From: Thermoplasmatota archaeon
GTDB lineage: Archaea; Thermoplasmatota; Penumbrarchaeia; Penumbrarchaeales; Penumbrarchaeaceae
DNA length: 28,441 bases
Direction of reading: 5' to 3'
Assembly: GCA_030591285.1 (NCBI GenBank)
Contig: JAUVBH010000001.1
Coordinates: 1-28,441 of the forward strand
Shown: positions 1,129 through 28,441 of the stretch, piece after piece
How the letters are laid out: the number at the start of each line of letters is the position of its first letter
How positions within the stretch are numbered: the stretch's first letter is position 1
The notes under the pieces: generated by a model
Seen by the model: the letters and a program-made list of their open reading frames with translations, nothing else
Told to the model about the DNA's origin: nothing
Database searches by the model: none
Translations under genes and position numbers: made by a program

Positions 1129-2772
1129 ATGAACGGGGATATGGGTAGAAGGATCGCAATGCTTTCCCTCTTTATCGTTGCATTCATGGTTATTACATCT
1201 TCAGTGGGGTCTTCCCAATCAAAAACAGATCCCATTGAGGTTGATGATTATCAGACCTTGCTGGAAATGAAGGATGAGGGGACCGGCAGGTTTGGATCAT
1301 TGGATACCGGTTCATTTGTTGTATTCGAAGACAAGGTCTCGCAGGTCGTTGAATACACCGAAGTATCAAATTCCGGTGGTGTCGAGATCCAACTTCAGAA
1401 GACAAGGATCTATCTATCTTCATCCGAGGATGCAACCGGATATCCTGAACCCCTTCAATTCCATGGGACCGATTATGATGAGAGCTTGAGGTCAGGAGCA
1501 GAGGTTCGGATCACAATTCAGATCAAGGAGATCCCAGAGGGTAATAGAACTATTCAGGTCCTGGACACCACAAATGGATTGGTTGAGCTGATAAAGCAGG
1601 GCAAGGATGATGGAGTGAAGACCGAGGATGACATTGAAGTATTCGGGATGAACATTCCCACCACATTCCTTCCAAAAGCTTACCGGACAGACCTGGTACG
1701 TTTCCTTCTGGTCTTTGCGATCTGGGCCATTGGAACCGTTATCATGTGGTTCTTAGTAATGGCTGCAATGAAGATAACGAAAAAGACGAAGATCGATGTT
1801 GACCATAAGATCCTGAGTATTATTGCCGGTCCATTTTTCGTTATTTTATTGTTCTATGGATTGATAATCTCTCTGTCGCAGTTCGATCTGGACAAGAGGT
1901 TCATAGAGATCCTCGATATGCTTTATCGGTCTGTCACCATCGTGATCATCGCCTATATTGCCATCAAAGTGTTCAAACAAGTAATACTCGTTTATCTGAA
2001 GGTCCTCTCGGCAAAGACCGAAACCCAGGCAGATGATGTACTTGTTCCTGTGATGGGCAAGCTTATCACCGTTGTGATCTGGGCTATTGCAATAATCATG
2101 TTCCTCCGGGTATTCGGGATCGATGTTACCGTATTCATAGCTGGCATGGGGATCATCGGATTGGTGATCGCTTTTGCAGCGCAGGATACCCTCTCTAATT
2201 TCTTTGCCGGCATCATGATCCTCTTGGATCGCCCTTTCAAGGAGGATGATTGGATCGAGATGGAAGGATCGACCTACCAGGTAAAGAAGATAGGATTACG
2301 TTCAACGAGACTCCTCCATTCCATCTCGAATCAGCTGGTGACAATACCAAATAACAGGATATCTGACCATATCTTCTCCAACCTGAGCGAGCCAAACTAT
2401 CTTGGTAGAAAAACCGTGACCGTGGGAGTGGGATATCAGCATGAACCAAAGAAGATAGGAGAGTTGTTGATAGATGTTGTACGTTCTCATCCGGATACCT
2501 TTGAGGATGAAGAGCATAAACCACTTTACAGGTTCAATACCTTCGGAGATTCATCTTTGGACTTTGCAGTTACATTCTGGGTAAAGGATTTCAATGATCA
2601 GTGGAGAGTTGCCTCTGAGCTCAGAGAACGAATATATGACAAGTTCGAAAGTGAAGGTATCGAGATCCCATATCCACAGCATGTATTACACATATCTGGA
2701 AAAGGTGAACCGGATGAAGTTCCCATCACTGCAAAACCGAAAGTGGGTGAAATGCAGAACCTGAGTCCGTGA
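1129..2772 (+). CDS. mscS: Small-conductance mechanosensitive channel with an N-terminal signal peptide and extracellular domain
   Basis: MscS signature 'GLVIAFAAQDTLSNFFAGIMILLDRPFKEDDWI', 'IGLRSTRL', 'FNTFGDSSLDF' and 'GIEIPYPQ'. The ORF track starts at TTG 1084; ATG 1129 gives a cleaner signal peptide. Confidence 0.93.
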   Translation: MNGDMGRRIAMLSLFIVAFMVITSSVGSSQSKTDPIEVDDYQTLLEMKDEGTGRFGSLDTGSFVVFEDKVSQVVEYTEVSNSGGVEIQLQKTRIYLSSSEDATGYPEPLQFHGTDYDESLRSGAEVRITIQIKEIPEGNRTIQVLDTTNGLVELIKQGKDDGVKTEDDIEVFGMNIPTTFLPKAYRTDLVRFLLVFAIWAIGTVIMWFLVMAAMKITKKTKIDVDHKILSIIAGPFFVILLFYGLIISLSQFDLDKRFIEILDMLYRSVTIVIIAYIAIKVFKQVILVYLKVLSAKTETQADDVLVPVMGKLITVVIWAIAIIMFLRVFGIDVTVFIAGMGIIGLVIAFAAQDTLSNFFAGIMILLDRPFKEDDWIEMEGSTYQVKKIGLRSTRLLHSISNQLVTIPNNRISDHIFSNLSEPNYLGRKTVTVGVGYQHEPKKIGELLIDVVRSHPDTFEDEEHKPLYRFNTFGDSSLDFAVTFWVKDFNDQWRVASELRERIYDKFESEGIEIPYPQHVLHISGKGEPDEVPITAKPKVGEMQNLSP

Positions 2773-2785
2773 ACCACACCAGACC

Positions 2786-3394
2786 TCATTCATCACTTGA
2801 GGGGTGAGGGGCGTTGTGATTGTAGGAATCATCGGAATAACGGCCATTCACGGTGATATGGTACCAGTCGTAGAAAGGCACATCAGAGGCTTGACTTGCA
2901 GTTCCGTTGCCGATCACCCTAAGTGACCAAAGACCCGTTTCTGCACCCTCTATCTGGTCGATCATCTCTGCTGTTTGAAAACTCCCGACAGCAGGTGCAA
3001 CATAGGTTTTATGGGATCTCAATTGGCCCCCCTCATCCTCCGAGATGAAGTAAAGGCTCACATCGATGACCCTAATAAACTCGATCTGTCTTTCGGCATC
3101 ATCTCCAAAAATGATCTGGCCCCAGATATTAAGATCTCCCCCCCCCTCTCCAATATGGAAGTTATCAACAGAGAAATGCTCCTCTTGAGTCAGGACCTGG
3201 ACACTGTCACCGAACCCTCCGGTGAAATTATGGCGTACTTCTGCAATGGTCCCCTGTTTGAACCCGATCACTGTGTCATCTCTGGGAAAGAATACCCTCC
3301 TTGTGGAATTCAGATCGATACAACCTGACATGGTGACTAGGGGGATGATCAGAACGATCAGCATGAACAATGATACGGGAACCCTGCTTTTCAC
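2786..3394 (-). CDS. Hypothetical lipoprotein
   Basis: From GTG 3394: MKSRVPVSLFMLIVLIIPLVTMSGC (n-region, h-region, lipobox SGC). A TATA box TTTAATAA starts 31 nt upstream at 3425 on the minus strand. The ORF track extends to 3436. Confidence 0.75.
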   Translation of the reverse strand: MKSRVPVSLFMLIVLIIPLVTMSGCIDLNSTRRVFFPRDDTVIGFKQGTIAEVRHNFTGGFGDSVQVLTQEEHFSVDNFHIGEGGGDLNIWGQIIFGDDAERQIEFIRVIDVSLYFISEDEGGQLRSHKTYVAPAVGSFQTAEMIDQIEGAETGLWSLRVIGNGTASQASDVPFYDWYHITVNGRYSDDSYNHNAPHPSSDE

Positions 3395-26686: not shown

Positions 26687-27267
26687 AAGATCCCTTGAAG
26701 AGGATGGAGGAGATATTCCTCGAAATGAAGGACACCTCCGAGTTGATGGTGGACCTCGCTTATTCCTCATTGCTTTACAATAACAAGGAGATCGCTTCCG
26801 AAGTGGAGCATCTCGGGGATATTGTCGATGAACTCTCTGGTGACCTCCAGCATATCGCCATCGAGGAGATCGCTGAAAGGACTCCAGATGCAACTTTGAT
26901 GATCCTTCAGATGGCAAGGTTCGTGGATTCGATTGCAGACGCAGCCATGTCAATTGTCGATGTCGTGTTGAGGGATATCGAACCCCACCCCATTTTGATT
27001 CAGGTGATAAAGGAATCCGATGTCGGGATCTACAAGATGGAGGTTCGCTCAAAGTCGACCCTTGTAGATAAACCACTGGGAACCTTGAGGCTTGCAACAG
27101 AGACCGGTATGTGGGTATTTGCCATCAAAAGAAAGGTACGATGGATCTACGGTCCCGAGAAAGGAGAGGTGTTGAAGAAAGGTGATATCATCTTCGTTAG
27201 GGGCCCGGAAGATGGTGCTAAAAAACTCCGTGCCGTTGCCAAAGCAAAGAGAATGTCCCTTGAATGA
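26665..27267 (+). CDS. PhoU-like plus TrkA-C domain protein, paralog 2
   Basis: 'EMKDTSELMVDLAYSSLLY', 'LRLATETGMWVFAIKR...WIY' and 'KGDIIFVRG'; overlaps paralog 1 by 22 nt; RBS GGTGA at 26654-26658. Confidence 0.85.
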   Translation: MGEIQEVEDPLKRMEEIFLEMKDTSELMVDLAYSSLLYNNKEIASEVEHLGDIVDELSGDLQHIAIEEIAERTPDATLMILQMARFVDSIADAAMSIVDVVLRDIEPHPILIQVIKESDVGIYKMEVRSKSTLVDKPLGTLRLATETGMWVFAIKRKVRWIYGPEKGEVLKKGDIIFVRGPEDGAKKLRAVAKAKRMSLE

Positions 27268-27310
27268 AAGTTTTAAAAAGAATAATATCATAGCCCTCTT
27301 CCCACCATCT

Positions 27311-27383
27311 GCGGGTGTGATGTAGTCTGGTATCATTCTAGCTTGCCAAGCTAGTAACTCGGGTTCAAATCCCGGCACCCGCA
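27311..27383 (+). tRNA. tRNA-Gly (anticodon GCC), no intron, CCA not encoded
   Basis: Acceptor stem GCGGGTG/CACCCGC plus discriminator A; anticodon arm CTAGC-TTGCCAA-GCTAG; T arm TCGGG-TTCAAAT-CCCGG; TATA TTTAAAAA at 27272. Confidence 0.97.
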
Positions 27384-27712
27384 CTCATTTTCTTTCGTCA
27401 ATTAGAAGTTGATACGAAAATGAGTGCTCGAAAATGATTACACACGATAAAAATGAATTGCAGGGTGCAATATCATTTTTATCTGGACATTTGAGCTTTG
27501 CTTGTCGTCAATTATTGGGCAGCTCAAATGTTCCGGCACCCGTCTTAAGATTTTTGTCAAGTAAGATAACTTCTAACAGATCTGGATCTGGATGTTTAAG
27601 ACATAAAAAGAATCCAAATTTAACATCCAGGTCTGAAAAATCTGCGATTTTTCAATGACCTTTGAATTTGGCTTGCCGTCAATGTTTTTCAAATTCAAAG
27701 GTCCCGGCACCC
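27381..27712. repeat. Hairpin array with two degenerate tRNA-Gly 3'-end copies
   Basis: Inverted repeats at 27381-92/27416-27, 27446-62/27466-83, 27487-97/27521-31, 27589-97/27622-30, 27634-42/27646-54 and 27657-70/27690-703. CCGGCACCC occurs at 27372, 27533 and 27704; CGTCAAT at 27396, 27506 and 27677. Confidence 0.85.
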
Positions 27713-27784
27713 ATCGTTATAGCTAATCAAGTTTTATGGTCAGAGAACAGTAATTGGAAATAATCTTCAGGGGTATAGGGGTGC

Positions 27785-28441
27785 ATGGGTGGAAAGGGAG
27801 AGAAGATAGTTGCCCTGGTCACTGGTGGATACAAGAACCTTGGATTGTACATTACAAAAGGACTGATGGAAGCGGGATACCGGGTTGTCACCACATACAG
27901 GAGCCGTGGCCGTGAAGCTGAAGCAGTTTCTAAGGAATTCGGGTTCGATATCTACGAAGCAGACGTCTCCAACAAAGGAGATGTAATGGAGCTATTTGCC
28001 TGGATCGAATCAAATATTGGAACTGTTGCAGTCGTTGTAAACAACGTATCATCTTTTCCAACAGGGCCCCTGAAGTCACTATCAATTGAAGAGTTCGAGG
28101 GAGCTTTCAAAAGTTCTGTATTCGCTTCCAATCTGGTGATGAATAGAGCAATTCCAGGTATGCTTGAGAAAGGAGCAGGTAGAGTTGTGAATATTGGAAT
28201 GGCAGGAACCAACCGGATCAAGGGATACATCGACGTCGCCGCTCATGCGGCTGCCAAAACCGCTTTGACCGTACTTACCAGATCATGGGCCAGAGAACTT
28301 CGAAATGACAAGATATCTGTCAACATGGTCAGCCCTGGGATCATTGATTACAGTTGGAGGGATAACATCTGGAGGGACAAGATGAAGAAGATCTTACCAT
28401 CTGGTGAATTGACCCAGCCCACTGAAGTGGCATCTGCGGTA
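27785..28441 (+). CDS. SDR-family oxidoreductase, 3'-truncated by the window edge
   Basis: Not in the ORF track because there is no stop. Hand translation: MGGKGEKIVALVTGGYKNLG...VVNNVS...GRVVNIG...AAHAAAK...NMVSPG. Rossmann TGxxxxxG motif; the frame is open to the window end. Confidence 0.9.
   Translation, partial: MGGKGEKIVALVTGGYKNLGLYITKGLMEAGYRVVTTYRSRGREAEAVSKEFGFDIYEADVSNKGDVMELFAWIESNIGTVAVVVNNVSSFPTGPLKSLSIEEFEGAFKSSVFASNLVMNRAIPGMLEKGAGRVVNIGMAGTNRIKGYIDVAAHAAAKTALTVLTRSWARELRNDKISVNMVSPGIIDYSWRDNIWRDKMKKILPSGELTQPTEVASAV

Follow-up and report, generated by a model that had tools for sequence, protein, structure and literature searches.

The 28,441-nt stretch of contig JAUVBH010000001.1 from a Thermoplasmatota archaeon (positions 1 to 28,441; hereafter the window) contains a tRNA-Gly(GCC) gene that is followed by a series of hairpins and partial copies of the tRNA. 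It belongs, as one array, to a lineage-wide family of non-coding repeat modules linked to tRNA genes. All features of the array lie on the plus strand. The tRNA gene was located at 27311-27384 by ARAGORN and scored 62.4 bits with the Rfam tRNA model. Its bases from T60 to the end (TCCCGGCACCCGCA) are the sequence repeated downstream: TCCCGGCACCC occurs at 27370-27380 inside the tRNA, again at 27531-27541 with one mismatch, and at 27702-27712, so that successive occurrences are 161 and 171 bp apart. The repeated CCGGCACCC is the 3' end of tRNA-Gly itself.

The first unit (27385-27544) is a complete member of the family, matching its covariance model at 27370-27541 with 179.6 bits. The z scores of its hairpins were obtained by folding the sequence as DNA and comparing it with shuffled sequences. 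Hairpin H1 (27381-27427; inverted repeat I7; -12.3 kcal/mol, z -5.3) has a 12-bp stem (GCACTCATTTTC/GAAAATGAGTGC), the first 3 nt of which are the final 3 nt of the tRNA, and a 23-nt loop containing TCGTCAATTA at 27395-27404. The linker between H1 and H2 (TCGAAAATGATTACACAC, 27428-27445) was delimited by the invariant columns of our alignment A1 and examined with a promoter position weight matrix; the ACG at its 3' edge is almost invariant, and it bears a faint resemblance to the archaeal B recognition element (BRE)/TATA promoter motif. H2 (27446-27483; inverted repeat I11; z -7.9; 11 of 11 pairs covary) comprises 17 bp with one bulge and a GGG loop, its A/T-run stem (GATAAAAATGA/TCATTTTTATC) being prolonged by ATTGCA-GGG-TGCAAT. 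H3 (27486-27532; inverted repeat I12; z -5.6; 12 of 12 pairs covary) has a stem of 11-12 bp and a 23-nt loop with TCGTCAAT; its 11-bp arms ACATTTGAGCT and AGCTCAAATGT lie at 27487-97 and 27521-31 and enclose 23 nt. The unit is closed by the first extra copy of the tRNA 3' end (TTCCGGCACCCGTC, 27531-27544, direct repeat family D3).

The second unit (27545-27715) is rearranged, as H1 and H2 are missing and two other hairpin modules are present, and it matches the model with 48.6 bits (27574-27712). Its degenerate start, read from the sequence as lacking an intact H1 or H2, occupies 27545-27584; a homologous array in contig C197 of the same genome has no counterpart of window positions 27481-27579. 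The H4 module (CTGGATGTTTAAG...TTTAACATCCAG, 27585-27633; inverted repeat I4; z -2.9) is a separate hairpin that also occurs behind tRNA-Asn (contig C9) and in C197, and that C198 carries with a compensated change. The H5 module (GAAAAATC-TGC-GATTTTTC, 27637-27655; z -3.5) has 8 bp and a 3-nt loop and recurs in loci L011, L020 and L258 and in C197. The H3 hairpin of this unit (27657-27703; inverted repeat I3; z -5.6) has a 14-bp stem and a 19-nt loop with CGTCAAT; seen as 11-bp arms (ACCTTTGAATT/AATTCAAAGGT, 27658-68 and 27692-702), it encloses 23 nt, and the stem then extends to 14 bp. The array ends with the second extra copy of the tRNA 3' end (TCCCGGCACCCATC, 27702-27715, family D3).

An earlier note on the window had described a duplicated hairpin layout at this site. 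All the particulars it listed were found in the sequence, including the A5/T5 hairpins, the middle hairpin and the two periods given above. Each of the three left-arm differences between the copies is compensated on the right arm, and the shared interior motif, GCTTGYCGTCAAT, lies at an equal offset in both H3 loops. The two copies are not equivalent, the first unit being complete and the second rearranged. The anticodon-like GCTTGYC is restricted to this locus, and the loop motif conserved in the family is TCGTCAAT. A likeness of the first unit to a D-loop and anticodon arm was seen by eye and is anecdotal. A tRNA pseudogene reading was rejected: the units were called neither by the Rfam tRNA model (E ≤ 10) nor by ARAGORN, and only the real tRNA scored. 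A 74-codon open reading frame (ORF) crosses the hairpin units at 27434-27658 on the plus strand; because of the repeat structure it is almost certainly spurious and does not merit annotation as a gene.

The unit family and its structure

The genome of the window (G000) comprises 1.9 Mb in 320 contigs and is 70% complete. Its array in C197 is 83-86% identical to that of the window and is bracketed by a different 14-mer, TCCCAGTGCTCCCA; related arrays lie behind tRNA-Asn (C9), tRNA-Ala (C179) and tRNA-Ile (C235, with four copies of the tRNA 3' end). A BLAST search of relatives matched 19 of 23 genomes of the same taxonomic family, nearly always next to a tRNA. A covariance model (R1) was built from the hand alignment A1 of 23 full units. 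It found 4-24 full-length units per genome in all 24 genomes of the taxonomic family, about 290 in total, and a few units in 3 of 13 other genomes of the class, which belong to three other families; there were none in the remaining ten. The true matches in a pattern scan of a genome collection were records named Thermoplasmatales or Thermoplasmatota archaeon metagenome-assembled genomes (MAGs), while the bacterial matches were due to chance and had no covariance-model match. Among the loci from a metagenome pattern scan, all 80 that were screened with the model failed, the pattern being too loose. The sequencing runs containing the window flanks were cold-seep and marine-sediment metagenomes.

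The earlier note had recognised no annotation for the element, in agreement with the absence of Rfam matches to the units, RtT included. The covariance-model search that it proposed returned homologues in 24 of 24 genomes and further covariation. None of the outcomes it had named as speaking against it came about, namely a lack of homologues elsewhere, a lack of further covariation, or a match to a known miniature inverted-repeat transposable element (MITE), insertion sequence end or Rfam family. MITE features were looked for in the units; their ends (a T-rich start and a GGTCC end) are not inverted repeats, and the TCGTCAAT motifs are in direct orientation.

The linkage to tRNA genes is strict. 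A same-strand tRNA gene lies less than 500 nt upstream of 125 of the 139 unit matches in the loci examined, and most of the others are at contig or locus edges. The unit-bearing tRNAs are Gly (GCC, CCC, TCC), Leu (TAA, TAG, GAG, CAG), Ser (TGA, GCT, GGA), Ala (CGC, GGC, TGC) and Glu (CTC, TTC), with variant units at Arg, Asn, Ile and Trp, and the family spreads over seven genera and at least 15 tRNA species. Arrays contain 1-4 units, and genome G011 has at least 10 unit-bearing loci. Many tRNAs carry no units (Thr, Val, Phe, Tyr, Asp). Behind tRNA-Ile(GAT) (G000 C235:5331-6000, locus L029), three more exact copies of the tRNA 3' end were found at +140, +293 and +475. These units represent a different subtype with AAAATCGCC and GGTCTGACAC hairpins that R1 did not detect; the family is therefore larger than the covariance-model counts suggest. 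In genome G016, tRNA-Ala(TGC) and three units lie ~1.4 kb downstream of the 16S rRNA 3' end on the same strand (C41, L247:1356-3501), so the units may lie in an rRNA-tRNA transcription unit, like some of the E. coli tRNA-linked repeats.

The arrays also affect assembly. Many MAG contigs start or stop inside them, since the units break short-read assemblies, and a run of N interrupts the tRNA-Ser(TGA) array of genome G008 ~150-270 nt downstream of the tRNA (C47, L025). For the annotation and assembly of MAGs this means that contigs break at arrays and that tRNA-end fragments can pass for prophage borders.

The consensus unit has a length of ~160-170 nt and three hairpins and begins directly after the last tRNA base (A1). 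In H1, the tRNA terminus and a T-rich run (typically GCACCATTTTTC) are paired with their complement ~23-24 nt downstream, across a loop with TCGTCAAT. Then follow the linker with its near-invariant terminal ACG, H2 (CTAAAAA...TTTTTAG), CTGG, and H3, whose 11-14 bp stem varies in sequence and whose loop carries TCGTCAAT; last comes the tRNA-end copy. The loop motifs are conserved, and their CG dinucleotides are invariant in A1; the conserved flanks are ACG, CTGG and TCCC. T5 runs are found on both strands in H1 and H2, and a T-run follows every tRNA-end copy.

The exact match of the tRNA-end copy to the local tRNA is mostly 15-17 nt long (10-11 nt in the window). Whatever the tRNA, the copy nearly always starts at T60, reading TCCC in most tRNAs and TCAC in tRNA-Leu(GAG), and ends at A73 or at the encoded CCA. 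It is clamped between two hairpins: its first 3 nt are paired by H3 and its last 3-6 by H1, and the 8-9 most tRNA-specific bases between them are unpaired. The 3' arm of H1 tracks the tRNA terminus, as in GCGCCA/TGGCGC for Ser, GGTCCAC/GTGGACC for Ala and CCCACTTTC/GAAAGTGGG for Ile. An H1-type hairpin with a 23-24 nt loop was found behind about 45 of the 69 tRNAs examined.

When 77 units were aligned to the model, 94.1% of the cells were paired, versus 37-53% when the partners were slid by 1-3 columns. Both partners vary in all 35 pairs, and 500 shuffles never attained such values; the corresponding figures for the hand alignment A1 were 90.7% pairing and 31 of 35 pairs. The structure is under selection, as the earlier note had proposed from two copies.

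The mismatches in the stems were then used to compare pairing in RNA and DNA. The unit stems contain 66 G·T versus 49 A·C mismatches, and H1 and H3 alone 28 versus 27. In the control, the acceptor and T stems of 59 tRNAs at the same loci, 659 Watson-Crick pairs were accompanied by 40 G·T and no A·C. About equal numbers of G·T and A·C are the expectation from transitions when neither mismatch is tolerated. The unit stems depart from the RNA pairing rule, and a DNA-level role is therefore favoured; from this comparison we lean to the view that the units act as DNA-level palindromes instead of RNA. Of the two possibilities raised by the earlier note, a co-transcribed non-coding RNA and a folded recombination site, the mismatch spectrum thus leans to DNA and does not settle the choice.

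The linker was scored with a promoter matrix made from 69 tRNA promoters of these archaea (consensus GAAAGGTTTAAAAA). Its median score was 6.3, compared with 1.2 for the background and 8.6 for real promoters, and the position of the best match was inconsistent between units, which makes the test ambiguous. The tRNA genes of the family share the BRE/TATA motif GAAAG-G/A-TTTWAAWA, the 3' end of which lies ~30-32 nt before the mature 5' end; this motif could serve promoter annotation.

Variation of the units and candidate enzymes

Orthologous tRNAs carry arrays across genera, with variation in unit number and type. Such differences are seen for tRNA-Gly(GCC) among G000, G001, G003 and G006, and tRNA-Leu(TAA) is followed by two units in G016 but by three in G020. 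In a tree of units from which the repeat columns were excluded, some groups follow the tRNA type (Ala, Glu), and others follow the genome irrespective of tRNA type. The clusters that cross types include Gly-GCC with Ser-TGA of G008 (support 99), Leu of G016 with Ser-GCT of G011 (99), and the first unit of the window with the Trp-type array in C197 (97). These clusters imply that units are transferred, or converted, from one tRNA locus to another.

Copies of the donor type remain visible in some arrays. The tRNA-Gly(GCC) of G006 is followed by Gly(CCC)-type (CATCC-type) copies, and in the tRNA-Ser array of G008 the inner copies resemble decayed Gly ends, the outermost copy being of the Ser type. 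A target-site-duplication model suits most arrays and was rejected, as it fails where the copies belong to another tRNA. The arrays are mosaic, some units having H4/H5 inserted at CTGGA^C (C197, L011); other recurrent parts are two further modules, H6 and H7, and a T-arm-like motif in inverted orientation, and there are also partial units that are inverted. The tiny cassettes imagined in the earlier note did not materialise, since no cargo-bearing cassettes were found.

Searches were made for enzymes that might act on the units. A search for the Y1 transposase of the IS200/IS605 TnpA/RAYT type (PF01797) gave no match in any of the 24 genomes of the taxonomic family or in the 3 unit-bearing genomes outside it, but matched 6 genomes of the class that have no units. 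TnpB gave no match above the cut-off. Because TnpA and TnpB are absent, we rejected the reading of the units as RAYT-driven palindrome-associated transposable elements (PATE) and the idea of an omega-RNA-like scaffold and guide formed by H2-H3 and a 16-nt tail. Reverse transcriptase, IS110 transposase and Cas1 occur sporadically, and none of them is present in G011 (97% complete, 22 units); retro-, bridge-RNA- and casposase-type readings are therefore unsupported.

Tyrosine recombinases were the sole enzyme candidates seen. The PF00589 search gave one strong match per genome, presumably the host's Xer-like recombinase, and 0-6 others. Some integrase genes adjoin arrays. In G011, such a gene lies ~300 nt past the two-unit tRNA-Ser(GCT) array. 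In G003 (C108, L258, reverse strand 1500-3100), an integrase gene follows the tRNA-Gly(TCC) array, and hairpin modules reach its stop codon; the region is probably an integrated element of small size. No repeat could be located at its far end, and the one candidate for a far-end attachment (att) copy was rejected as a chance 13-mer inside a gene. Two small ORFs beyond this integrase resemble, by eye, a ribbon-helix-helix/RelE-type toxin-antitoxin pair.

An integrase element in the window's own genome uses the same tRNA-end core as the units. Contig C118 (L257) of G000 contains an intron-bearing tRNA ending in TCCCAGTGCTCCCA at 1286-1478 on the minus strand, which we read as Trp(CCA) with an intron of ~106 nt and which ARAGORN parses as Asn(gtt) with a 106-nt intron. 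A convergent gene for a 333-aa tyrosine integrase (C118:211-1212, plus strand) lies ~100 nt downstream of this tRNA. Exact TCCCAGTGCTCCCA was otherwise found only twice, on both sides of a unit in C197. On the simplest reading of these sequences, the integrase element would have inserted between tRNA-Trp and the older array with the tRNA-end copy as its att core; as C118 and C197 are not joined, we infer this insertion. A tiny Arg/Lys-rich ORF resembling ribosomal protein L41e lies in C118 between the intron-bearing tRNA and integrase on one side and tRNA-Arg(TCT) on the other.

Weighing the explanations

Tentatively, and with rather less than even confidence, we favour a reading of the units as non-autonomous repeat modules for which the tRNA-end copy is the site of recombination, probably mediated by tyrosine recombinases acting in trans. 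The modules would be DNA repeat elements that work as folded DNA and not as RNA, and recombination at this copy would both multiply and rearrange them. In a given array, unequal exchange between copies could lead to tandem gain and loss of units; between tRNA loci they would occasionally be transferred. Since the tRNA-end copy is the att core of tyrosine-integrase elements in these archaea, tyrosine recombinases in trans are the most likely enzymes. These might be the integrases of elements and possibly the host's Xer-like recombinase. Two parts of this reading are inferred: any action of recombinases on the modules, and a requirement for the hairpins in that action. The earlier note was right that any enzyme would have to act in trans.

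Several observations weigh against this reading. The co-occurrence with a tyrosine recombinase or an HUH nuclease proposed in the earlier note did not appear: integrases are sporadic, no recombinase tracks the units, and Y1 is absent from all unit-bearing genomes searched. Homologues of the C118 integrase were present in 7 of 37 genomes searched (the window's own counted), unrelated to the units, and G010 (96% complete, 10 units) has a single PF00589 match, presumably the Xer-like recombinase of the host. The ends of the visible integrase elements are not unit-like, and pattern scans of viral contigs gave chance matches only and no unit. Public contigs over the locus break at 27384/85, and their sole joint (27480 to 27580) is the paralogous C197 form; neither excised circles nor unit polymorphism at the population level could be demonstrated from these contigs, which break at repeats. 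The 23-nt loops disfavour cruciforms in duplex DNA. In replication template switching, a published mechanism, one hairpin arm is copied from the other, and this could yield the same G·T/A·C symmetry; the mismatches therefore make an RNA role less likely but leave it some probability. The universal presence and conserved structure of the units suit a host function equally well, and the analogous E. coli repeats are transcribed and processed (PMC8144298).

The last point leads to a different explanation, which we consider somewhat unlikely: the units would be small RNAs like the E. coli tRNA-linked repeats, made by tRNA read-through or from a weak promoter in the linker, processed at the copy by tRNA-type 3' processing, and folded into RNA hairpins. 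Their layout matches that of the E. coli repeats, and for some of the latter transcription by terminator read-through, processing and binding to Hfq and CsrA are known (PMC8144298). The units are always co-oriented with the tRNA, a T-run follows each tRNA-end copy, and the linker scores above background against the BRE/TATA matrix (6.3 vs 1.2; promoters 8.6), although the position of the promoter-like match differs between units. Against this reading, the T-run right after the tRNA should end archaeal transcription. The stems, long and perfect without bulges, have no G·U tolerance in their mismatches (66:49 vs 40:0 in tRNA stems), and inner copies lose CCA but keep their H1 pairing by compensation, e.g., GCACTT/AAGTGC. 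There is no Rfam match either, RtT included. A host cis-element of tRNA genes, in which the hairpins and T-runs would serve as bidirectional terminators or insulators, as aids to 3' processing or as decoy attachment sites that spare the functional tRNA end, is less probable still. Every family genome has units, at orthologous tRNAs across genera; most unit-bearing tRNAs have an H1-type hairpin that pairs the tRNA terminus, and H1 and H2 carry T5 runs on both strands. However, units are missing behind many tRNAs (Thr, Val, Phe, Tyr, Asp), one and the same tRNA can carry different numbers and types of unit in different species, archaeal termination requires no hairpin, and neither H3 nor the transfers between loci are explained. 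That an integrase element apparently entered at the tRNA-proximal copy of the Trp array counts in favour of a host element; yet in this only case observed, integration took place at the tRNA itself, and the decoy failed.

It is very improbable that the units are passive scars, i.e., attL/attR stubs of decayed elements that were amplified in tandem without selection. Direct repeats of a tRNA 3' end are the classic footprint of integrase elements (PMC9897764), and integrase genes lie beside some arrays. Nevertheless, the units are unlike the ends of the elements seen, their loop motifs are conserved with invariant CG dinucleotides, and three hairpins with 35 of 35 covarying pairs extend across seven genera and at least 15 tRNA species; because of the covariation, this explanation is close to refuted. 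The probability left over from these four readings goes to a mechanism not yet described. One version, which we hold to be unlikely, is a dedicated process, involving neither a classical integrase nor a classical transposase, in which the terminal 14-17 nt of a tRNA gene, position 60 onward, are copied and hairpin modules are placed behind the gene with host functions only, e.g., by priming or pairing of a tRNA 3' end on the complementary copy. The archaeal units and the E. coli repeats would then be products of one undescribed mechanism of DNA duplication or mobility directed by tRNA ends.

Comparison with known systems

The earlier note had suggested attC-like sites, and the units do share with integron attC sites the conservation of structure over stem sequence, the arrangement in arrays and a tyrosine recombinase as a plausible partner. 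In the archaeal units, however, conserved motifs are confined to the loops (TCGTCAAT) and flanks, with stems that vary, and there is no cassette cargo. Neither R''/L''-L'/R' boxes nor the GTTRRRY core of attC were seen by eye in the unit consensus, and the HUH (Y1) transposase is missing across the taxonomic family. Repetitive extragenic palindromic sequences and bacterial interspersed mosaic elements (REP/BIME), which are associated with RAYT, likewise form mosaics of small intergenic hairpin modules in both orientations. They differ in that Y1 (RAYT/TnpA) is absent from 24 of 24 genomes of this family, and in that the archaeal units are strictly tRNA-linked and bounded by tRNA-end copies.

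Tyrosine-integrase att sites and their gene-less derivatives come closer. Accreted gene-less derivatives of integrase elements are cis-mobilisable elements. Both they and the archaeal units involve direct repeats of the tRNA 3' end that start at the T-loop/T-stem border and can stand in tandem behind one tRNA; integrase genes adjoin some of the arrays, and one element in G000 uses the same core. The archaeal units, in contrast, are ~160 bp long and gene-free, show no similarity to the visible element ends, and occur where no element integrase was found (G010). We know of no att arms with covarying hairpins like those of the archaeal units. Integrase-element footprints (PMC9897764) explain the repeated tRNA end and not the three covarying hairpins across seven genera.

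The closest known analogue is the group of E. coli tRNA-linked repeats (TLRs), i.e., the tyrT 178-bp repeats, rtT RNA (RF00391) and rrA/rrB/rrF. The analogy with the tyrT repeats drawn in the earlier note holds, as the E. coli repeats have the same layout (PMC8144298). They have been known since 1978, and 22 of them are distributed over ten loci that carry one to five each. Their three-stem structure is conserved, and neither a maker nor a function is known; for three of them, read-through transcription, processing and binding of Hfq and CsrA in vitro were reported (PMC8144298). In both groups, units of ~150-180 bp lie right behind tRNA (or rRNA) genes at many loci, with 1-5 per locus; each group has a conserved three-stem structure, and every unit closes with a repeat of the upstream gene's 3' terminus, which measures 14-17 nt in the archaea and 18-19 bp in E. 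coli. There is no homology of sequence or structure between them, and the RtT model (RF00391) gave no match at E ≤ 10 in window positions 27000-28000, nor at E ≤ 1 in six other unit-bearing loci. The archaeal units also differ in following a DNA-like mismatch rule and in having an H1 that pairs the tRNA terminus itself; transcription was shown for some members of the E. coli group.

A non-homologous archaeal family with the architecture of the E. coli tRNA-linked repeats is now defined, with hundreds of copies. The diversity of these copies lets the rules be read from sequence: the boundary at position 60, the two clamping hairpins, the ~23-nt loops with TCGTCAAT and the DNA-like mismatches. 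With them, an old curiosity of E. coli can be recast as a question open to testing, namely which agent acts on the 3' ends of tRNAs in DNA.

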